The translations under genes were made by a program, and so were the position numbers. The notes under the pieces were generated by a model that did no database searches, was not told where the DNA came from, and worked only from the letters and a program-made list of their open reading frames with translations. Below, one piece after another: positions 43,622-64,000 of a stretch of 64,000 nucleotides of DNA. The first letter of the stretch is position 1; each line of letters starts with the position of its first letter. This DNA is from Kiritimatiellia bacterium (GTDB lineage: Bacteria; Verrucomicrobiota; Kiritimatiellia; CAIVKH01): assembly GCA_023953695.1 (NCBI GenBank), contig JAMLJG010000015.1, positions 2,756-66,755 of the forward strand, given 5' to 3'.

Positions 43622-44053
43622 ATGCGTTTGATCGGAAAACTCCTCCATTGGCTCCCCGCCATCGCCTGGGCCAGCACGCTCTACAGCCTCAGCAGCCGCT
43701 CCGCCGTTCCCGACATCCCCTCGTGGTTTTCGGCACACGACAAAGTCACACACGCCATCGCCTTCGGCCTCCTCGCCTCTCTCATCCAGTTCGCCTTGCT
43801 TCGAGCTCATCGCCTGCGCTTCCTCCCCGCCGCCTGCATCGCATGGCTGCTGACCACCGCCTACGGCGGCCTGGACGAACTGCACCAGCGCTTCACACCC
43901 GGCCGCGTTTCCGACATCGCCGACTGGATCGCCGACATGACCGGCGCAGCCCTCGCCCTCGCGATCCTCGCCCTGCTCGCCTATTCGTATCGCCGAATCA
44001 CCCCGCGCACCACCCCGCCAATCACCAGCGACTGCCGCGGCCGAATGAATTGA
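43622..44053 (+). CDS. VanZ-family membrane protein
   Basis: Three to four TM helices with the conserved DKVTHAIAFGLLA and GGLDELHQRFTPGR motifs of VanZ-like proteins. The 3' end overlaps lexA convergently by 73 bp. Confidence 0.6.
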   Translation: MRLIGKLLHWLPAIAWASTLYSLSSRSAVPDIPSWFSAHDKVTHAIAFGLLASLIQFALLRAHRLRFLPAACIAWLLTTAYGGLDELHQRFTPGRVSDIADWIADMTGAALALAILALLAYSYRRITPRTTPPITSDCRGRMN

Positions 44054-44583
44054 TACTTCCTATTCGCCGGATCCAAGCGAACCCCAACGCTGTCCTTCAC
44101 ATAATACTTCAGCGTCCACTCTCCATCCACCTGCGCAACCACAATCTGCCCATTGCGCGGCTGCGAGCCCTTCTCCACCAGCACGATATCGCCCGGATGA
44201 ATCCCCGCATCCACCATCGAGTCCCCATTCACCGTCAGCAGAAACGTCGCCTCCGGACGCCGAATCATATATTCATCCAGACTCAACACATCCGCCGCCG
44301 CCTCCTCCGCCGGCGATGGAAATCCCGCCTGAACAAAACCCAGCATCCGAACCGTCCCCGACAACTGCGCCGTCGGAGACAAATGCCCCGCCGCATCCTT
44401 GGCGAGAAACCCATGCTCAACCAACTTCTTCACCAACCCCGACACCGCATTCGTCGAGCGATAGCCAAAAACATCCAACATCTCCCGATAACTCGGCAGT
44501 CGCTTCTCGCGCCGATAGAAAAGGCGCAATTCCTGAATCTTCTCCTGAATATCAAGCGTGCGCGGCATGGCCAATCTCCCCAT
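43981..44583 (-). CDS. lexA: LexA repressor (S24 peptidase)
   Basis: N-terminal wHTH, an Ala-Gly cleavage region (VQAGFPSPA), catalytic Ser (GDSM) and Lys (KGSQPRNGQIVVAQV..LK) motifs of the S24 family. Confidence 0.85.
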   Translation of the reverse strand: MGRLAMPRTLDIQEKIQELRLFYRREKRLPSYREMLDVFGYRSTNAVSGLVKKLVEHGFLAKDAAGHLSPTAQLSGTVRMLGFVQAGFPSPAEEAAADVLSLDEYMIRRPEATFLLTVNGDSMVDAGIHPGDIVLVEKGSQPRNGQIVVAQVDGEWTLKYYVKDSVGVRLDPANRKYQFIRPRQSLVIGGVVRGVIRRYE

Positions 44584-44680: not shown

Positions 44681-44759
44681 TTCCAAGCCTTGGAAGCCCA
44701 TCTCGCACAAACTTCCAACCCTTGGAAGTCAGCGCCCCCCAGACTTCCAATCCTTGGAA
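44681..44759. repeat. array of three 15-bp palindromes TTCCAA-N3-TTGGAA at exact 32-bp spacing in the lexA / lipoprotein divergent intergenic region
   Basis: Copies at 44681-44695 (gcc spacer), 44713-44727 (ccc) and 44745-44759 (tcc). Each is preceded by ACTTCC context. The same motif family occurs upstream of bioA. Confidence 0.7.
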
Positions 44760-44903: not shown

Positions 44904-45419
44904 GTGCCGTTGAAGCTTGACTCTATGCCAGCTCACATCCGCACGTCATTCGCCATCCTCGCAGTCACACCCCTGCTGCTCGGTTGCCAATATAATCCGT
45001 ATGCGCACCTGTTCACCACAACCCAGCCGAAGCAAGAGCATGTCGCCGGGAGCTACTCGCTCACCCAGCAGACGATTGCGCCGGGAGGATTGAGCCTTCT
45101 CCAGGGTCAGCGGTGTGTGCTGGAGTTGCGTGGAGACGGCACTTTCAGCATCATGAATTACCCGACCTGGTCGGAAGCGTTTTCTCCCACCAATGGGCAG
45201 CTCGTCGCCTCCATCAGCGCGACTGGTCGTTGGTCTTGCGATACGGTTGGCGTTGTCTCCGATGGCCGCAAGAGCCAGCGCTATTGGGGCGTTCAATTTT
45301 CGGACGCAGACACTCAGCTTGATCCACTGACCCTCACCGGCAAGACTCCGCCATATGGCCTCATCATGACGTATGGCGATCCCGATAGTGGCACAGTCAT
45401 GATTTTCGAGAAGAAGTGA
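44904..45419 (+). CDS. hypothetical lipoprotein
   Basis: Lipobox LLLGC after an N-terminal signal (probable start MPAHIRTS at 44925). No family match. Divergent from lexA. Confidence 0.5.
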   Translation: MPLKLDSMPAHIRTSFAILAVTPLLLGCQYNPYAHLFTTTQPKQEHVAGSYSLTQQTIAPGGLSLLQGQRCVLELRGDGTFSIMNYPTWSEAFSPTNGQLVASISATGRWSCDTVGVVSDGRKSQRYWGVQFSDADTQLDPLTLTGKTPPYGLIMTYGDPDSGTVMIFEKK

Positions 45420-56160: not shown

Positions 56161-56348
56161 GCCTCCAAACTCCTTGCTGCACACCCAACAGCCAGCTATC
56201 TTCGCCCATGCTGTGAAAACGCTGGGAAAATCAGCAATTTGTGGAACGAAGCGGCCCTCTGGACACCCCGCAAAGGCGCCGCCCGAATCGCTCTCTTCAC
56301 CGCGACAACAACCGCAACAACACAACCCGAGATTCAGCAGGTGCAGAC

Positions 56349-56987
56349 ATGGATGAATCAAAGAATACTGCAATCATCATGCGAGACGCAGAACATGGCG
56401 ACACCGAAGCCAAATGTATTCTCGGCATGATGTATTTAGATGGACATGGCGTCCCTCAAAGCGACGCGAAGGCGCTCGAGTGGTTCGCCCAGGCCGCAGA
56501 AGAAGGCAATGCCGACGCGCAATTCTATCTCGGCGTCATGTACTACGAAGGCCGGTGCGTACCCCAAAACTACGCAAAAGCCGTCGAATGGTATTCACGA
56601 GCCATTGAACAAAACCACGCCGAATCGCAATTCAACATCGGCTGGCTATACGCCAAAGGGCATGGCCTTCCGCAAGACGACGTAAAAGCTGCCGAATGGA
56701 TCGCAAAGGCCGCGGAACAAGGAGACGCAGACGCGCAATCCGACCTCGGCGTCATGTACTACGAAGGCCGCGGAGTGCCCCAAGACGATACAAAAGCATT
56801 TGAATGGCTCTCAAAGGCCGCCGCGCAGGGCATTGCCACATCGCAAGCCAACCTCGGTGAAATGTATGAAAAAGGCCGAGGTGTGCCACAAGACTACGCA
56901 AAAGCTGCCGAATACTACGCCATGGCCGCCGAACAGGGCCATGACGATGCGCAAAGAAATCTCGACGCGCTGTCCGAGAGAAATTGA
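56349..56987 (+). CDS. Sel1-repeat (SLR/TPR-like) protein
   Basis: Five tandem 36-aa Sel1 repeats (A.AxxWYxKAAEQGxAxAQxNLGxMYxxGxGVPQD). Local GC is visibly lower than the flanking bio genes. Confidence 0.75.
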   Translation: MDESKNTAIIMRDAEHGDTEAKCILGMMYLDGHGVPQSDAKALEWFAQAAEEGNADAQFYLGVMYYEGRCVPQNYAKAVEWYSRAIEQNHAESQFNIGWLYAKGHGLPQDDVKAAEWIAKAAEQGDADAQSDLGVMYYEGRGVPQDDTKAFEWLSKAAAQGIATSQANLGEMYEKGRGVPQDYAKAAEYYAMAAEQGHDDAQRNLDALSERN

Positions 56988-57094
56988 AAGTGAGCCCTAT
57001 GCGCAGCCGCGAGTTGAGCAAAAGCTCAACGAGGCGCGTGGTCAATTCGCAAATCGGACTGCACGACGCGGGGCGCGTTTGATAGATTCGCCCC

Positions 57095-57886
57095 ATGAGC
57101 GTGCATCAACTCAATCAACGGGCTCAGTTTTCCGCGGCGGCGGCGGGATATGATCGCTTTGCGCATACGCAGCGGGCAGTGGCGAATCAGCTCTTCGAGG
57201 GCTTGGCTCACGCAGGTGAAATGCGCCGGATTCTCGATGTGGGCTGCGGAACGGGGGCGCTCACGCGGCACCTCGCGATTGCCTGGCCCGAGGCGGAGGT
57301 GGAGGGCATTGACCACGCGCAGGGGATGATCGAGGAGGCGCGGCGCATCAGCGGAAATGCGGAGCGCCCTCGCTATCTGTTGGCGGATGCGCAGTCGTTT
57401 CGCGCGCCGCTTCCCTATGATTTGATCGCGAGCAGCAGCACGCTGCACTGGATTCAGCCGCTGGAGTTCACGCTGCGGCATTTGGCGTCTCTGTTGGCGC
57501 CGCACGGCACATTTGCCTTCGCGATCATGCTCGAACGGACGCTCTGCGAGCTGCATAGCGCACGGGCACAAATCGCTCCGAACAATACGCCGGCGTCGAA
57601 GATGCCCTCGCATAACGTGGTGATGCAGGGCTTGGCCGGCGCGGGCTTGCGCGTGGTGGCGAGTGAGGTGCAGGAGTTTCTTGTGCATGCCGAGTCGGCT
57701 TCCTCGCTGCTTGGCGATTTGCGCGCGCTGGGGGTCACCGGGGGGCCGCTCTCGCTCGGAGCCCGGCCGCTGACCCGCGGTGAGGTGCATCAACTGCTGG
57801 CGCTCTACGAGCGCAGCTTCCGCGATGAGCGCGGAGTTCGCGCGACGTATCACGTGGGCTATTATTGGGGCCAGCGCAATGATTGA
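57095..57886 (+). CDS. bioC: malonyl-ACP O-methyltransferase
   Basis: Class I methyltransferase with motif I ILDVGCGTGALTRHL, positioned immediately upstream of and overlapping bioD. Confidence 0.8.
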   Translation: MSVHQLNQRAQFSAAAAGYDRFAHTQRAVANQLFEGLAHAGEMRRILDVGCGTGALTRHLAIAWPEAEVEGIDHAQGMIEEARRISGNAERPRYLLADAQSFRAPLPYDLIASSSTLHWIQPLEFTLRHLASLLAPHGTFAFAIMLERTLCELHSARAQIAPNNTPASKMPSHNVVMQGLAGAGLRVVASEVQEFLVHAESASSLLGDLRALGVTGGPLSLGARPLTRGEVHQLLALYERSFRDERGVRATYHVGYYWGQRND

Positions 57887-58571
57887 CGCAGGCCTCATCG
57901 TGGTCGGCACGGATACGGGGATCGGCAAAACGCGGGTTGCGGCGGCGCTGCTGGTCGCGCTTCGCGCACGCAGGTTCGATGTCGTGCCGATGAAGCCGAT
58001 TCAGACGGGCGCGGAGCGCGGGCGCGCGCCCGATTTGGATTTCTGTTTGCAGGCGGCAAATCTTCCGTGCGACGCAGCGTTGTATGACCGACTCGCCCCA
58101 TACCGCTTTGCGCTCCCCGCGTCTCCGCATCTCGCAGCGCGCGAGGCGGGCGCAACGATTGAGGCGCAACGCATTTGGGATGCGTGGACAGCGCTGCGCG
58201 ATGCGGGGCATGGCGTGATCGTCGAGGCGGCGGGCGGGGTGCTAGTTCCGCTGAGCGATTCGCTCCTGCAGATGGATCTGCTTCTCGGGTTCGATCTCCC
58301 CTTCCTCCTCGTCGCGCGGCCGGACCTGGGCACGTTGAATCACACGTTGTTGACACTGGAGGCGCTGAGGAATCGCAATGCGCAGATCGGCGGAATCGTG
58401 CTCAATGCCACGCGCGCGGACAGCGGTTTGATTGAAGAGGATAACGCCCGTACGCTGGCGGCGCGAAACCCCGATGTGCCCCTCCACCGCTTCCCGTTTA
58501 TGCCGGACCCCACCCGCGCGGCCCTGGAAAAGGCGGGCGCGGATCTTCTGGCGACGCTGCACTTCCAATGA
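57879..58571 (+). CDS. bioD: dethiobiotin synthetase
   Basis: P-loop GTDTGIGKT with the BioD-type fold. The start MIDAGL overlaps the bioC stop. Confidence 0.9.
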   Translation: MIDAGLIVVGTDTGIGKTRVAAALLVALRARRFDVVPMKPIQTGAERGRAPDLDFCLQAANLPCDAALYDRLAPYRFALPASPHLAAREAGATIEAQRIWDAWTALRDAGHGVIVEAAGGVLVPLSDSLLQMDLLLGFDLPFLLVARPDLGTLNHTLLTLEALRNRNAQIGGIVLNATRADSGLIEEDNARTLAARNPDVPLHRFPFMPDPTRAALEKAGADLLATLHFQ

Positions 58572-58672
58572 TTGGAAACCGGTCGCGCGCGGACTTCCAA
58601 CGATTGGAAAATTTGCGTGTGAAAGTTCCAAGGGTTGGAAGTATGGTGCGAGGAAATTTCCAAGCGTTGGAA
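58563..58672. repeat. array of four TTCCAA-N3-TTGGAA palindromes at 31-32 bp periodicity upstream of the bioA 5' fragment
   Basis: Copies at 58563-58577 (tga), 58595-58609 (cga), 58626-58640 (ggg) and 58658-58672 (gcg). The last two lie inside the duplicated block shared with the functional bioA upstream region. Confidence 0.7.
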
Positions 58673-58689
58673 ATATGGGGTGATTTTCG

Positions 58690-58869
58690 ATGAGTGTTTC
58701 TGAGGTTCAGCGTTGGGATCGCGCGCATGTGTGGCGCCCGTACACCAAGGCTTCCACGCTTGAGGCGGGGCCGGCGCCGGTCATTGTGCGGGGGCCACCC
58801 GGGGTCTGCCACCCGGGGTCAACCCTTGAAAGGCCGTTGAAAAACTCGCTGTTGCCGATGTCTGTTTAG
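58690..58869 (+). pseudogene. orphan 5' fragment of bioA (first 35 codons) truncated by an insertion
   Basis: MSVSEVQRWDRAHVWRPYTKASTLEAGPAPVIVRG is near-identical to the N-terminus of the full bioA at 61686. The reading frame then continues into unrelated sequence and stops. Confidence 0.7.
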
Positions 58870-59411
58870 ACGAAACGGGGGACGAGCCCCCATCGCCGCA
58901 TCTTTTCCCAGCATGGAGGGATGCGGCCCGTGAATGCGGCGATGCCGACGCCCGCCCGTTCAATAGCGGTCACCGCGGTTCGGACCATTTTACCGGGCGC
59001 CTTTCCGGCTGCCCGGATGATCCGCTGCCGGTGCGTGGGGCACTGCGCCGGCCTCCACCATGCACCGAACAGCCGGACCAAACCCGTACGCCTTATCGCC
59101 ACCCACCGTGGTCGGTTCGATGCCCAGCGCAAAACGACTGCGCTCGGTCATGAGGCCCGCCGCCTGTCCTTCTGGCACAAGCGACGCTCCGAGGTGATGC
59201 CGTGCAGATATCCCAGCGCCATCATGCGGATCAACACTTCAGGATCGATCGAAGGGCGGCCCGTGTGGCTGTAGAGCGAGCGGGTCTGTTCTTCCACAGC
59301 AGAGAAATCGATGTAGCGGTCGATCTTGCGCAAGAGGTGGTCGGCGGGAACAAGATCCTCAACTCGAACCATCGAGAACATCGGCTCCGCGCGTCGTTGC
59401 TTACCTCGCAT
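58866..59411 (-). pseudogene. IS5/IS1182-family (InsH-type) transposase remnant with frameshift/internal deletion
   Basis: N-terminal InsH-like domain (MFSMVRVEDLVPADHLLRKIDRYIDFS...HTGRPSIDPEVLIRMMALGYLHGITSERRLCQ). A second, frameshifted piece contains the DDE-region motif GDKAYG. Most of the catalytic core is missing. Confidence 0.6.
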
Positions 59412-59591
59412 GGGAACGTCTCCTTATGTCGGCTCGAATGCCGACCTCACTCCAACGACTCAAGGCCCAGACGTGTTCATCGTTTATCCGAGTTTTTCAA
59501 TAGCCATTATTCCACTGACCCCTATTCCACAGACGTTCGCCCCACGGCATGACTGCTTTACGGCTCTCTAGCGTCATGATATGATAGCGCC

Positions 59592-59780
59592 ATGATTCAG
59601 AAGGTGATACAGCGACATGCACTGAAGGATGAAGGCAAGCCATCTCTAGAGTTGAGCTATTGGCTTAAGGTATCTCCGGAAAAGCGTGTTGAGGCAGTTG
59701 AACTCCTCCGCAGGCAGCATTATGGAAGCTCAACCCGACTACAGAGAACTGCTCGAATTATTCAACGCCCAAGGGGTTGA
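59592..59780 (+). CDS. small hypothetical protein (possible partner of downstream nucleotidyltransferase)
   Basis: 62-aa ORF overlapping the start of the nucleotidyltransferase-fold gene. No family recognised, and it may be spurious. Confidence 0.25.
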   Translation: MIQKVIQRHALKDEGKPSLELSYWLKVSPEKRVEAVELLRRQHYGSSTRLQRTARIIQRPRG

Positions 59781-60186
59781 ATTTCTCATTGTTGGCGCCT
59801 ATGCGCTGGCCTTCTATGGAGCGCCACGTACGACAGGCGACATTAACCTTCTTGTTCATTCAACCCCCGATAATGCGGCGCGCGTTGTCGCCGCTCTTGA
59901 CGCCTTTGGTTTCGGGTCCCTCGGGCTCACAACGGACGACTTTCAAACTCCCGATCAAGTTATTCAACTCGGCGTCCCCCCTGTGCGGATAGATATTCTG
60001 ACGTCTCTCTCGGGTGTCACATGGAATGAGGCAAACGAGGGCAAGGAGCCGGGCAACTACGGGGATGTACCGGTATTCTTCATCGGCAAGACCGAATACA
60101 TAAAGAACAAGAAGGCCACAGGCCGCAAGAAAGATGAAGCCGACGTTGAAGCCTTGGGGCAATCAGGGGCGACCCTTGAGAATTGA
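59722..60186 (+). CDS. nucleotidyltransferase-fold protein (MNT/AbiEii-like minimal NTase)
   Basis: YRELLELFNAQGVEFLIVGAYALAFYG...TGDINLLV matches the minimal nucleotidyltransferase pattern (hG[GS]...D.D). About 155 aa. The start is taken at MEAQPDY. GC content is lower than the host genome. Confidence 0.5.
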   Translation: MEAQPDYRELLELFNAQGVEFLIVGAYALAFYGAPRTTGDINLLVHSTPDNAARVVAALDAFGFGSLGLTTDDFQTPDQVIQLGVPPVRIDILTSLSGVTWNEANEGKEPGNYGDVPVFFIGKTEYIKNKKATGRKKDEADVEALGQSGATLEN

Positions 60187-60367
60187 CAAAGGCGGGGGCA
60201 GCGGGGTCAGCAATCGGCTGTATCGCCGGCGCAAAGGACTGTTCGACGGTCAAGATTATGCGATACCAAGAACTGATCCGCGCCCCCCGCCTACACCGCA
60301 TGGCTCACTCGCGACGGGCTCGCTGTCGGGTGTGGCGTGACCTTAGGCGGACGAAAGAGGAGGCACT

Positions 60368-61129
60368 ATGAGTTTAAGAAGGAAAATTGAGGCGCTTGCG
60401 GGGCACCTGACCGGTAGACGCAAGAATCGCGCACCTCCGCGTGGCATGGATTTCGCCTTGGACATCGCGTATGCCTTGCCGTTGTTTCGCGCGAGCATTG
60501 TTTTTGATGTAGGTGCCAACGTTGGTCAATCCGCGAAACTGTTTTTGGCCAAGTTCCCAGATTCGCACATCTACTGTTTCGAGCCGGTGACCGATACGTA
60601 TCACCTGCTTCAGCACAACTTACATGATACCGAGCGCGTTGATTGTCATCAGTTGGCCTTCGGCTCTACAACGAGAACCGGGGAGATGATTCTCCAAGGC
60701 TCCTCCGACATGTTCTTTTTGCTGGGCCAATCGAGCGAGTTGCCCAACAAAGAGGTGCGAAGCGAGTCCGTAAACATAGACACACTGGATGCCTTTTGCC
60801 GCGCGAACAAGATTGATCGCATCAGCTTCCTCAAGATAGACACCGAGGGAGGAGATCTAGACGTCTTGAGAGGCGCAGAAATGATGCTAGGCGAACAGAG
60901 AATAGATATTGTTCAAGTGGAAGCTGGGATGAGTCCGACTAACAGCAGGCATGTGCCATTTCAATCCCTAAAGAATTTTCTCGAAGACCATGGGTACTAT
61001 CTGTTTGGCATTTACGAACAAGTGAAGGAATGGCCTACTGGAGAACCTCACTTGCGACGGACAAACCCCGTATTTATCTCACAACAGGTGATTGACAAAA
61101 ATCGAAAGCAAAAGAGACCCAGGACATAG
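60368..61129 (+). CDS. FkbM-family methyltransferase
   Basis: Methyltransf_21 signature VFDVGANVGQSAKLF...CFEP...FLKIDTEGGDLDVL. Located in the low-GC cargo of the island. Confidence 0.75.
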   Translation: MSLRRKIEALAGHLTGRRKNRAPPRGMDFALDIAYALPLFRASIVFDVGANVGQSAKLFLAKFPDSHIYCFEPVTDTYHLLQHNLHDTERVDCHQLAFGSTTRTGEMILQGSSDMFFLLGQSSELPNKEVRSESVNIDTLDAFCRANKIDRISFLKIDTEGGDLDVLRGAEMMLGEQRIDIVQVEAGMSPTNSRHVPFQSLKNFLEDHGYYLFGIYEQVKEWPTGEPHLRRTNPVFISQQVIDKNRKQKRPRT

Positions 61130-61235
61130 CAACGCGCTGTAACGGACGGCAATTTCGCTGTGTTCCCTTGCTGCCGGTGAACTTGGGCAGTATGTGTCTA
61201 GATCACTTGGACAACGGCCCCATTAGAAAAGGAGT

Positions 61236-61556
61236 TTGCACATGAGTCATAAAATCTCCGGGGGGTTAGTACATGAGCTGCCCGTTGATTTAGCCAGGGC
61301 ACTGATTGAAAAAGACACCATCGGTGCATGGGAGGCCTTATCACCCATTGGCCGCAATGAATTTATCTGCTGGGTGGAAGATGCCAAACAAGAGAAGACC
61401 AGAGAAAAACGGATTCTTCGAACGGTAGAAGAGCTACTGGAAGGCAAGAAACGACCCTGCTGCTGGGTCGGGTGCATTCATCGTACAGATAAGAAGCCAA
61501 GCAAATGGCAACAAGATGTGTTGATAGACAAAAAGAAAATTGCAAGGAAGAGTTGA
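61236..61556 (+). CDS. YdeI/OmpD-associated (OmdA) family protein
   Basis: Conserved OmdA core GRNEFICWVEDAKQEKTREKRI with the typical roughly 100 aa size. A hairpin TTTGGC-tgac-GCCAAA follows the stop. Confidence 0.6.
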   Translation: MHMSHKISGGLVHELPVDLARALIEKDTIGAWEALSPIGRNEFICWVEDAKQEKTREKRILRTVEELLEGKKRPCCWVGCIHRTDKKPSKWQQDVLIDKKKIARKS

Positions 61557-61622
61557 GAACGACACATGGCAAGTCGTTCACGGTGCGACGTCTTTGGCTG
61601 ACGCCAAACGCGCGCCTTTATC

Positions 61623-61668
61623 TCCAATCATTGGAAGTATGGTGCGAGGAAACTTCCAAGCGTTGGAA
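61623..61668. repeat. two TTCCAA-N3-TTGGAA-type palindromes upstream of the functional bioA (one degenerate CTCCAA)
   Basis: Copies at 61623-61637 (CTCCAAtcaTTGGAA) and 61654-61668 (TTCCAAgcgTTGGAA), 31 bp apart. The right member is homologous to the palindrome at 58658. Confidence 0.6.
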
Positions 61669-61685
61669 ATGTGGGGTGATTTTCG

Positions 61686-62999
61686 ATGAGTGATTCAGAG
61701 GTTCAGCGTTGGGATCGCGCGCATGTGTGGCACCCGTACACCAAGGCTTCCACGCTTGAGGCAGGGCCGGCGCCGGTCATTGTGCGGGGCGATGGGATTT
61801 ATTTGGTGGATGCGGAGGGGCGTCGTTTTGTGGACGCGATTTCGTCGTGGTGGTGTGCGGCATTGGGGCATGGGCATCCGCGGATTGTCGCGGCGATCCA
61901 GGGTCAGGCGGGGGTGTTGCAGCACAGTATCCTGGCGAATCTGACGCATCCGCAGGCGGCGGAGTTGGCGGCGCGTCTTGCGGGGATGATGCCGACGCGG
62001 GAGCGCCGCGTTCTGTTTGCGAGCGATGGGGCGAGTGCGGTGGAGCAGGCGCTGAAGATTGCGGTGCAGTATTGGAGCAATGTGGGGCGTGGCGCGAAGC
62101 GGAAATTTGCGTGTTTGCATACGGCGTATCACGGGGACACGTTGGGCGCGATGGCGGTGGGCTATCTGGAGGAGTGGCATCGGCCATTTCAGAGCTTGCT
62201 GGCAGAGGTGGTGGCCCTTCCCTTCCCCGTGGGCGCGGGCGAGTTCGGCGTTTGGGAGCGCGCGCTGGAGGCGCATCGCACGGAGTTGGCGGCGGTGATT
62301 GTGGAGCCGCTTTGTCTGGGCGCGGCGGGGATGTTGATGTATGCGCCGGAGCTGTTGCGGGCGTTGGGCGATTGGTGCGCGAGGAATGAGGTGTTGTTGA
62401 TTGATGATGAGGTGGCGATGGGGTTTGGGCGCACGGGTCGGATGTTTGCGTTTGAGCATGCGGGGGTGGATCCGGATTTGGTGTGCGTGGGCAAGGCGTT
62501 GAGCGGCGGGGCGCTGCCGATGAGCGCGACGATTGCGAAGCAGTTTCTCTACGATTCGTTTTCGGACGCGGAGCGGGATCGGACGCTGCAGCACGGGCAC
62601 ACGTTTTGTGGCAATCCGATTGGCGCGGCAGCGGCGAATGAGGCGCTGCAGATTTATGCGGAGATGGATGCGCCTGCGCGCGCGCGATCGCTCGGGGCGC
62701 GGATGGCGAAGCGCTTGGGCGCGCTGCGTGGAAAACGCGGGGTTCGCGATGTGCGCGGTCTCGGATTGATTGGGGTTGTGGAGTTGGAACCGGAGGCGAA
62801 TTGCGGGGCGATTTCGCGCCCGCATCGCATTCGACTGCGTCTTCAGGAGCGAGGTGTTCTCCTTCGCCCGCTTGGGAACGTGCTCTATTTGATGCCGCCT
62901 CTGATTATCTCGGAGGAGGAGCTCGACGCGCTGGTGGAACTCTTTGTCGGGGCAATCGAGAGCGAGCTGGCTATGGCAGGAGCCGCGGAAGGAAAATAA
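61686..62999 (+). CDS. bioA: adenosylmethionine-8-amino-7-oxononanoate aminotransferase
   Basis: Class III PLP aminotransferase with the BioA-specific N-terminus (WHPYT...) and the catalytic lysine context (DEVAMGFGRTG, CVGKALSGG). 437 aa. Confidence 0.9.
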   Translation: MSDSEVQRWDRAHVWHPYTKASTLEAGPAPVIVRGDGIYLVDAEGRRFVDAISSWWCAALGHGHPRIVAAIQGQAGVLQHSILANLTHPQAAELAARLAGMMPTRERRVLFASDGASAVEQALKIAVQYWSNVGRGAKRKFACLHTAYHGDTLGAMAVGYLEEWHRPFQSLLAEVVALPFPVGAGEFGVWERALEAHRTELAAVIVEPLCLGAAGMLMYAPELLRALGDWCARNEVLLIDDEVAMGFGRTGRMFAFEHAGVDPDLVCVGKALSGGALPMSATIAKQFLYDSFSDAERDRTLQHGHTFCGNPIGAAAANEALQIYAEMDAPARARSLGARMAKRLGALRGKRGVRDVRGLGLIGVVELEPEANCGAISRPHRIRLRLQERGVLLRPLGNVLYLMPPLIISEEELDALVELFVGAIESELAMAGAAEGK

Positions 63000-63459
63000 C
63001 GACGCCGACAATGGCCGCCGCGATGGCGGCGAGAAGGACTGCGCCGGCAGCGAGGTCCTTCGCCCGGCCGATGCCGGGATGGCGCTCCGGATGTATCGCA
63101 TCGGCCAATTCCTCGAGAGCCGAGTTAAACGCTTCAGCCGAGAAGACGAGGCCGATAGCAAAGATAACAGCGAGCCACTCCGTGCGGTTGATGTGGAGGG
63201 CGAAACCGAGCGCGATGGCGGCTGTGGCTAGGGCGAGATGGATGCGGGCGTGCACTCCTTTAATTAGGAAGTGAGCGACTCCGCGAAAGGCGTAGCGGAA
63301 GGCCGCGAGGCGACGGCGGAGAGGGTTTTGTCCGATCTCGTTCACAACGCGACGGTTATAGGTATTCCTTCGCTCTCTTTCAAGCGCATTGCGGCTGCGT
63401 GGAGCGCGCTGGATAGAACTTGCGTTTGGTGTTTTCTGCTCGTATGGTCGCTCTTTCAA
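62971..63459 (-). CDS. dgkA: diacylglycerol kinase (prokaryotic DgkA family)
   Basis: Conserved AAFRYAFRG...EAFNSALEELAD...GRAKDLAAGAVLLAAI pattern across three TM helices. The true start is probably the internal GTG near 63345, which gives about 125 aa. The 3' end overlaps bioA convergently by 29 bp. Confidence 0.75.
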   Translation of the reverse strand: MKERPYEQKTPNASSIQRAPRSRNALERERRNTYNRRVVNEIGQNPLRRRLAAFRYAFRGVAHFLIKGVHARIHLALATAAIALGFALHINRTEWLAVIFAIGLVFSAEAFNSALEELADAIHPERHPGIGRAKDLAAGAVLLAAIAAAIVGVVIFLPRLLP

Positions 63460-63476
63460 GTAGAGGTGCTGTGGAC

Positions 63477-64000
63477 ATGACAGATGCTGATTTGAACGCT
63501 GAAAATCTTGACGCCATTGAGACCCGCGACTGGATTGATTCGCTGGAGGAGGTCTATCACTCTCAAGGCGCGGAGCGGGTGGCGAATCTGCTGAAGGATT
63601 TGCAGTTGGAGGCCCAAAAGTTGGGCGTGAAACTGCCGGTGACGTCGAAAACTCCGTATGTGAACACGATTCCGGCGAATTTGCAGCCGGCCTATCCGGG
63701 CGACCGCGAGGTCGAGCGCCGGATCAAGAGTTTGATTCGCTGGAACGCGATGGCGATGGTCGTTCGCGCGAACAAGAAGAATGACGGCATCGGCGGGCAC
63801 ATTTCGTCGTATGCCTCAGCGGCCACGCTCTACGAAGTGGGTTTCAATCACTTCTTCCGCGGGCGCACGGAGAATCAGGACCCGGATTACGTCTATTTCC
63901 AGGGTCACTCGGCGCCGGGATTCTATGCGCGCGCGTTTCTCGAGGGCCGGCTTTCGCCGCAGAATCTGGACAATTTCCGGCGCGAGTTGGCGAAGGATGG
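63477..64000 (+). CDS. aceE: pyruvate dehydrogenase E1 component (N-terminal part, runs off the window)
   Basis: Not in the supplied ORF table because it has no stop in the window. The translation MTDADLNAENLDAIETRDWIDSLEEV...ERRIKSLIRWNAMAMVVRANKK...YFQGHSAPGFYARAFLEGRL aligns closely with homodimeric AceE N-termini. Confidence 0.85.
   Translation, partial: MTDADLNAENLDAIETRDWIDSLEEVYHSQGAERVANLLKDLQLEAQKLGVKLPVTSKTPYVNTIPANLQPAYPGDREVERRIKSLIRWNAMAMVVRANKKNDGIGGHISSYASAATLYEVGFNHFFRGRTENQDPDYVYFQGHSAPGFYARAFLEGRLSPQNLDNFRRELAKD

Follow-up and report, generated by a model that had tools for sequence, protein, structure and literature searches.

Some genomic islands enter a housekeeping gene at its 5' end and replace that end; SXT/R391 in prfC is one of them. 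The dusA-specific genomic islands (GEIs) are another case: they are driven by an integrase, replace the 5' end of their target gene, and have att sites of 21 nt (PMC4482086). A different route, homology-facilitated illegitimate recombination, is known from E. coli (PMC3240628), and the same process, with displaced remnants, has been proposed for the arrays of the Vibrio type VI secretion system (T6SS) and for rhs genes (PMC5361080). Here we analyse a stretch of 64,000 nucleotides from a Kiritimatiellia bacterium (assembly GCA_023953695.1, contig JAMLJG010000015.1), referred to below as the window. In it, foreign DNA of lower GC content separates the gene bioD from bioA, and the modules of this DNA have alleles that recombine between lineages. 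The insert is bracketed by two copies of a 167-bp repeat that carries the leader and the first 35 codons of bioA. We hypothesise that this is a non-mobile, decaying accessory islet which interrupts an ancestral bioD-bioA junction, and that the repeat is the scar of a recombination event, a reading to which we give about an even chance of being correct.

In the outgroups L003, L004, L005 and L009 bioD and bioA are adjacent, with spacers of approximately 345 nt (L003, 72% BioA identity), 84 nt (L004, 74%) and 89 nt (L005 and L009, both 53%). The full gene order in L003 is GlyTr-bioB-bioF-bioH-bioC-bioD-bioA-DAGK-PDH, which, judged from synteny, is the ancestral order; BioA orthologues that are 72-81% identical occupy the same synteny block. 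Because the two genes are contiguous in these more distant relatives, the islet is an insertion, as had been claimed in an earlier interpretation made without database searches (the sequence-only reading).

The same junction carries an unrelated insert of 4.2 kb in L002 (81% BioA identity). This insert encodes a 702-aa GT39/TPR-like protein and a PEP-CTERM protein, contains 224-nt tandem repeats, and has no associated duplication. Inserts occur at the bioA-DAGK junction too, in L002 and L004. These other inserts indicate that the neighbourhood is permissive and variable, and both junctions, bioD-bioA and bioA-DAGK, are spots that gather defence-type cargo (SMODS-SLATT and AbiEii-like genes). 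The tandem repeats of L002 (5950-6860) comprise four copies of a unit of 187-224 nt, the last three being 86-97% identical among themselves and the first 60%.

A repeat search of the window found the two copies as a direct repeat with 95% identity, 2,996 nt apart from start to start (Table 1). Aligned base by base, they are identical at 158 of the 167 positions. The nine mismatches lie in the loop of a palindrome (58632-58634), in the non-coding leader (58657 and 58675) and in the coding part (58697, 58701, 58736 and 58767); if the loop of this first palindrome is left out, the repeat has a core of 159 nt (58635-58793) with six mismatches. The right edge of the repeat is sharp. It lies immediately 3' of ...GTGCGGGG, within codon 35, and is preceded by 26 identical bases. 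The left edge is in or at a 15-bp palindrome. The 35 BioA residues read MSVSEVQRWDRAHVWRPYTKASTLEAGPAPVIVRG in the left copy and MSDSEVQRWDRAHVWHPYTKASTLEAGPAPVIVRG in the right, and the left copy has Arg at codon 16, where all functional BioA copies compared have His (in WH-P-Y). Only the right copy runs on into a full-length bioA, encoding a 437-aa class-III aminotransferase. The left copy is an orphan stub without a Pfam match, which follows bioD, the gene that closes the bioF-bioH-bioC-bioD run. The sequence-only reading had placed two blocks of roughly 95% identity at 58626-58790 and 61623-61790, with an orphan start of bioA upstream and the intact gene downstream; the alignment and the open reading frames (ORFs) of both copies agree with this, and its coordinates are right within a few bases. 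It had also argued that the blocks are not a fresh target-site duplication, and they are indeed far too long and too diverged for that.

Four further assemblies share this structure, all nine differences included: GCA_023953735.1 (on a 405-kb contig), GCA_024102575.1, GCA_046128175.1 and JGI 3300010051 (on a 146-kb contig). It is also present in several Logan runs. The sole variation among assemblies is one extra substitution in a palindrome of the left copy, present in two of them. The BioA of the window is identical to that of GCA_024102575.1, a record from which the window otherwise differs. The islet is therefore real and fixed in the species. Eleven contigs encode an identical BioC; of 10 of these, five run into the islet and five stop before it, and three of the latter (L196, L197 and L199) end inside the repeat. 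Neither the 11 contigs nor the metagenome scan gave an empty site.

In composition the cargo is foreign. The GC content is 53.1% in the module of the nucleotidyltransferase (NTase)-like genes (59524-60197) and 51.2% in the FkbM-OmdA module (60198-61622), against 65.1% in bioC-bioD and 63.5% in bioA, and the GC content at third codon positions (GC3) is 0.49-0.58 in the cargo against 0.73-0.76 in the bio genes. Equally GC-poor windows of the same size make up 0.2-0.6% of those elsewhere in the 64 kb. At its left end the insert is host-like over 730 bp (61% GC, with a transposase GC3 of 0.73), the part occupied by the remnant of an insertion sequence (IS). The difference in composition that had been claimed for the insert thus applies to its cargo and not to its left end, and the value of about 62% GC assigned to the surroundings was too high, the mean of the window being 58.7%.

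What had been described as a single island is an islet of at least three modules, the right one with a history of its own: the IS remnant (58815-59522), the NTase module up to 60197, and the FkbM-OmdA module (60198-61622). The remnant, about 708 bp long, has terminal inverted repeats of 34 nt that begin with GGGGTCA (58815-58848 and 59489-59522), and their local alignment score is higher than that of all 500 shuffles. A full-length DDE transposase, of about 488 aa, is absent. There are instead two fragments in different frames, one N-terminal (59148-59411; model positions 3-79 of 488, scoring 74 bits against a cut-off of 270 bits) and one from the DDE part (58990-59151; model positions 300-343 of 488). 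The N-terminal DUF772/IS1182 segment and the 34-nt inverted repeats are typical of the IS1182 family, in keeping with the IS5/IS1182-type transposase remains noted previously; the short length, the fragments in different frames and the lack of a target-site duplication (the flanks CCACCC and TATTCC are unrelated) are not. No second copy of the IS was found in the window or in 200 loci. At the left junction there is a 12-nt tandem footprint together with a CGGGG/CCCGGGG microhomology.

The cargo lies outside the IS and was therefore not transported by it in the manner of a simple transposon. A composite transposon is rejected on the grounds of the single IS remnant and of the search for further copies in the window and the 200 loci. 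The flanking repeats can likewise be rejected as a target-site duplication of the IS, since the remnant lies wholly within the insert, with inverted repeats of its own and no duplication. No ORF in 58794-61622 matches an integrase or recombinase family in Pfam or NCBIfam. The earlier description of a decaying island with no surviving integrase or recombinase is consistent with this result.

Further information on the history of the modules comes from a sister lineage (L098, L178 and L179), which has about 96% nucleotide identity to the window and a PDH E1 99.4% identical at the protein level. Homology with this lineage begins at 60198 and includes FkbM, OmdA, the same bioA-leader junction with both palindromes, bioA, DAGK and PDH. 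Left of 60198 the sister lineage has another block, of at least 5.7 kb, which matches nothing in the window. This block (L178 1203-6442, also in L179) encodes DUF4145, a SMODS nucleotidyltransferase with SLATT_4, GYF_2/DUF805, three small ORFs, and a 177-aa family that is located elsewhere in restriction-modification and IS-rich islands. Since the right module and its junction are common to two lineages with different left content, the right junction either predates the left junction and the stub or is independent of them. The sequence GGGGTCA occurs eight times in the 64 kb, and three of these occurrences are at islet breakpoints; one of the three, at 60203, is only five bases away from where the modules meet. 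These positions hint that the boundary at 60198 was produced by IS activity. A search for IS-like ends around the FkbM-OmdA module gave only the 8-mer at 60203, with nothing significant at the right end.

The SMODS and SLATT_4 genes of the sister block form a CBASS-like defence pair. The block is bordered by a tRNA-Ala(CGC) gene (L178 662-737, minus strand), and this flank has no match in the window. A tRNA-integrated island is nevertheless unlikely in the sister lineage, because the island lies 5' of the tRNA-Ala gene and no integrase is present among the precomputed Pfam hits of the block.

The sister Logan contigs begin about 20 nt before 60198 and run through the leader into bioA unbroken, whereas contigs of the window type break in the repeat. 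This suggests that the stub is specific to the lineage of the window and that in the sister genomes the leader has no similar second copy. One genome of the species (GCA_023953735.1, L082) is a recombinant: it is window-like over 57048-60250, while its FkbM-OmdA region shares 98.3% identity with the sister lineage (L178) and 96.1% with the window. Its differences from the window are clustered in tracts of 4-5% divergence (60250-61500, 61750-62500 and 63000-63500) with near-identical stretches between them, which points to frequent homologous exchange between co-existing lineages.

The leader of the sister lineage was used as the reference to polarise the differences between the repeat copies. 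The derived states fall at 58697 (Val3 to Asp), 58701 and 58767 in the right copy and at 58632-58633, 58657, 58675 and 58736 in the left copy, the last being the change of His16 to Arg. The stub is contiguous with bioD, as is bioA in the outgroups. Over the 167 nt there are nine mismatches between the left and right copies, 16 between left and sister, and 15 between right and sister. The synonymous divergence (dS) is about 0.085 between the two copies, from two synonymous changes only, and 0.23 between the right copy and the sister copy; for comparison, dS between the window and the sister lineage is 0.098 for OmdA and 0.070 for PDH E1. The divergence of the copies is about that of alleles in co-existing lineages (dS roughly 0.08), and the two copies probably do not predate the lineage split, even though the lineages on both sides of it have the right junction in common. 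Such a pattern follows readily if recombination juxtaposed two alleles of the bioA 5' end. The sequence-only reading had left a choice between an element that brought its own copy of this region and an old event that has since diverged; the data do not decide the matter, and the divergence leans towards two juxtaposed alleles.

On the basis of these observations, we propose that the incoming DNA consisted of the cargo together with a bioA leader and first 35 codons of its own, joined to it, and that it recombined with the resident locus. It may have come from a co-existing lineage, either as a circular intermediate or as a linear fragment. Homology in bioA and the downstream region would have provided the anchor, while the other end would have been joined illegitimately, at or next to a copy of IS1182. 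The incoming version would thereby have become the working 5' end of bioA, leaving the resident leader and 35 codons as the orphan stub beside bioD. The divergence of about 5% between the copies would then be mainly allelic, a difference between the parental lineages, with some added by decay of the stub (His16 to Arg, and one palindrome mutated in two assemblies). Later, the IS would have lost about 60% of its length, and the left module would have been exchanged at the breakpoint that bears the IS-end-like 8-mer. The route would be either a Campbell-type recombination or homology-facilitated illegitimate recombination; its exact form is a proposal.

The scar left by such an event can be compared with those in the Vibrio T6SS orphan immunity arrays and at displaced rhs genes. 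There as here, the incoming DNA would have a homologous anchor on one side and an illegitimate joint on the other, the resident version would be displaced and kept as an orphan, and the locus is a mosaic of alleles from several lineages. Here the homologous segment is present, and the left joint has the microhomology and the tandem footprint; neither a donor nor a pre-insertion allele was found. The differences are that in the T6SS and rhs systems it is 3' ends or immunity genes that are displaced, and these are kept by selection, whereas here it is a 5' leader and 35 codons with no evident function, and the illegitimate joint has an IS remnant.

Other explanations have to be considered. An assembly artefact, in which strain variants of the bioA 5' end were mis-joined, is suggested by the type of source, which is a metagenome-assembled genome (MAG), and by the branching of short-read graphs in the repeat: short Logan contigs break within a 34-nt identical stretch, with ends at 58706/61727, the expected behaviour of a de Bruijn graph. 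However, the structure is identical in four independent assemblies from different projects, two of them with contigs of 146 kb and 405 kb, and Logan contig L198 spans the left copy and runs into the IS remnant. An artefact is rejected on this agreement and retains next to no probability. An integrase-driven island that targeted and replaced the bioA 5' end, with the repeats as attL and attR and the integrase deleted later, would be closest to the dusA-specific GEIs. The likeness is considerable, in that both are inserted at the 5' end of a conserved gene, with imperfect direct repeats, an intact gene that has its working 5' end next to the island, and, across the insert, a remnant 5' end; moreover, the 26 identical bases before the sharp right boundary might hold a crossover core. 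On the other hand, neither the islet nor the sister block of at least 5.7 kb (by its precomputed Pfam hits) has an integrase or recombinase, the repeat of 167 nt compares with dusA att sites eight times shorter, and the insert is a 2.8-kb mosaic with no evidence of excision, no empty site or circle having been seen in the contigs or the metagenome scan. The unrelated insert of L002, at the same junction and without a repeat, implies that the site is simply permissive. We regard such an island as improbable.

A stronger competitor, although still rather unlikely in our view, is a single ancient insertion that duplicated 159-167 bp of the target, either by a Campbell-type single crossover of a circle carrying resident sequence or by repair of a long staggered break. 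The copies would have been identical at first and would have diverged in place, the stub neutrally and the working copy under selection. This fits with the derived changes in both copies, including the loss of the conserved His in the stub and, in two assemblies, the mutation of one of its palindromes, with the nine differences being fixed in all assemblies of the species and hence older than its recent diversification, and with the right junction common to the sister lineage, which makes the insertion old. If the duplication is as old as the shared right junction, however, the divergence between the copies should be no smaller than that between the right copy and the sister, and it is smaller, both in mismatches (9 against 15 in 167) and in dS (0.085 against 0.23), which is awkward unless gene conversion intervened. 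It also has to contend with the sister contigs, which have no assembly break at the leader, and with a left junction tied to an IS without target duplication. The recombination of two allelic versions faces difficulties of its own, which count against it. The mismatches to the sister (16 and 15) make neither copy clearly foreign; the age argument is weak, resting as it does on nine sites of which two are synonymous; the greater similarity of the copies to each other than to the sister could also be due to gene conversion between them; and the left end of the sister island lies beyond the contig ends and could hold a stub, which would favour a single ancient insertion with duplication. In addition, the event is unobserved, as neither a donor molecule nor an empty-site genome of the same species was found: the genome scan gave outgroups at the species level only (BioA identity of 81% or less), the metagenome scan one sister-lineage contig only, and an exact BioD look-up no match.

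Table 1 Positions, in the window, of the features of the bioD-bioA region.
Feature	Position	Strand	Evidence or remarks
bioD (dethiobiotin synthase)	57879-58571	+	Pfam AAA_26, 1.3e-39; synteny with outgroups
Four 15-bp palindromes, TTCCAA-N3-TTGGAA	58563-58672		Starts at 58563, 58595, 58626 and 58658; phase of 31-32 nt; in the spacer between bioD and the bioA stub
Left repeat copy (orphan stub)	58627-58793	+	Palindromes 3-4, Shine-Dalgarno-like GGGGTGA, bioA codons 1-35
Orphan ORF, 59 aa	58690-58869	+	35 BioA codons, then 24 unrelated codons and a stop
Filler at left junction, 21 nt	58794-58814		Junction of flank and IS end in tandem (CCACCCGGGGTC twice)
IS1182-family element, internally deleted	58815-59522	-	NCBIfam NF033551, Pfam DUF772
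Small ORF, 62 aa, in NTase-like module	59592-59780	+	Overlaps the start of 59722-60186 in another frame
NTase-like protein, 154 aa, DUF6036/DUF2204/AbiEii-like	59722-60186	+	Domains of homologues
Module boundary	60198-60210		Onset of sister homology; 8-mer GGGGTCAG at 60203 identical to IS end
FkbM-family methyltransferase	60368-61129	+	PF05050, 70.6 bits (cut-off 22.7); TIGR01444, 98.6 bits (cut-off 37.7)
OmdA/YdeI-family protein	61242-61556	+	PF13376, 57.1 bits (cut-off 25.6)
Right repeat copy	61623-61789	+	Palindromes 61622-61636 and 61654-61668; Shine-Dalgarno-like sequence; codons 1-35 of functional bioA
bioA (adenosylmethionine-8-amino-7-oxononanoate aminotransferase)	61686-62999	+	Pfam Aminotran_3, 329.9 bits

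The duplicated leader is 63 nt long and contains two palindromes and the Shine-Dalgarno-like GGGGTGA. The palindrome TTCCAA-N3-TTGGAA has nine perfect copies in the window, where 0.08 would be expected. Three of them form an array with a 32-nt phase (44681-44759), which has a lexA-like gene (43981-44583, minus strand) on one side and a lipoprotein gene (44904-45419) on the other. In L002, too, a pair of palindromes immediately precedes bioA, at -54/-22 relative to the start codon compared to -64/-32 in the window, so that in the window the start codon is about 10 nt further from the pair. L004 has a degenerate pair, and more distant relatives have none. The palindromes look like phased operator sites, and are candidates for recognition by an uncharacterised regulator. 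A simple biotin repressor operator is unsupported, since the bioB/bioF divergent promoter lacks the motif, which is present at the unrelated 44681-44759 array. An Rfam search of the leader and palindromes gave nothing credible, the only hit being a sub-threshold flavi_FSE (E=0.22) inside the IS remnant. The stop codon of bioD (TGA, 58569-58571) forms the loop of the first palindrome, and the array thus starts inside the end of the bioD reading frame.

The working bioA has kept its two proximal palindromes and ribosome-binding site, and has lost the two distal palindromes and its direct coupling to bioD. No sigma-70-like promoter was found in either repeat copy at the scan threshold, a promoter-like site precedes the NTase module (59557-59585), and there is no terminator-like site on the coding strand between bioD and the start of bioA. 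As all the cargo genes are co-oriented with bioD and bioA, read-through is equally plausible, and the transcription of bioA may either start in its own leader or run through the cargo. The idea that the insertion rewired the bioA promoter is thus unsupported: the proximal pair is retained as in L002, and neither the promoter scan nor the plausibility of read-through calls for it.

It is of interest that the same palindrome is abutted by the left edge of the duplication and by the right edge of two independent inserts. The palindromes could be recognition or fragile sites that make bioD-bioA a recurrent insertion point, through an undescribed mechanism of palindrome-targeted insertion or template switching, but we consider this very improbable. 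In a milder version, they may be operators of an uncharacterised regulator which links bioA with the lexA-adjacent locus at 44.7 kb. Such a regulator, and hence the conserved phased palindromes upstream of bioA, is the sole component of the locus with potential novelty.

The cargo proteins have been further analysed. The FkbM methyltransferase and the OmdA protein, both named in the sequence-only reading, score above the curated cut-offs, and the closest non-self homologues of the FkbM protein (69-71% identity) come from unrelated taxa. The assignment of a minimal nucleotidyltransferase stands in part. The 154-aa protein itself has no match in Pfam or NCBIfam scans, a search of PDB sequences returned noise only, and its match to the PADLOC AbiEii model is weak (E=0.011). 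However, it belongs to a large family of proteins of about 148 aa, some of which have DUF6036, DUF2204 or AbiEii domains, and homologues that are 65-67% identical carry PF19502, PF09970 or PF08843. Its putative catalytic D-x-D motif reads D-I-N (...GAPRTTGDINLLV), Asn replacing the second Asp. The overlapping 62-aa ORF and the NTase-like gene could be a pair of an antitoxin-like protein and an NTase, or a frameshifted fusion.

The locus adds little general knowledge: it is an ordinary, moderately old scar at a variable spot and not a new kind of mobile element. It does illustrate how a biosynthetic operon can accommodate a small accessory islet and not be inactivated, since a second leader and gene start came with the incoming DNA. 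It also illustrates how a scar of this kind can be given an age by comparison with co-existing lineages. For annotators of Kiritimatiellia MAGs, the 59-aa 'gene' after bioD should be read as a pseudogene stub, and the repeat should be expected to break short-read assemblies.

It is worth adding that the window has another additional segment in the same run of genes, 817 bp long (56231-57047), between bioH and bioC. It encodes a Sel1-repeat protein (ORF 56241-56987), has 55% GC, and shows an internal periodicity of 108 nt. The segment is absent from all of the 10 other same-species assemblies or contigs that span bioH-bioC, which have about 40 nt in its place. An unusually diverged stretch of 270 nt (90-97% identity) adjoins it on the left, which suggests that the segment arrived with a recombined tract.

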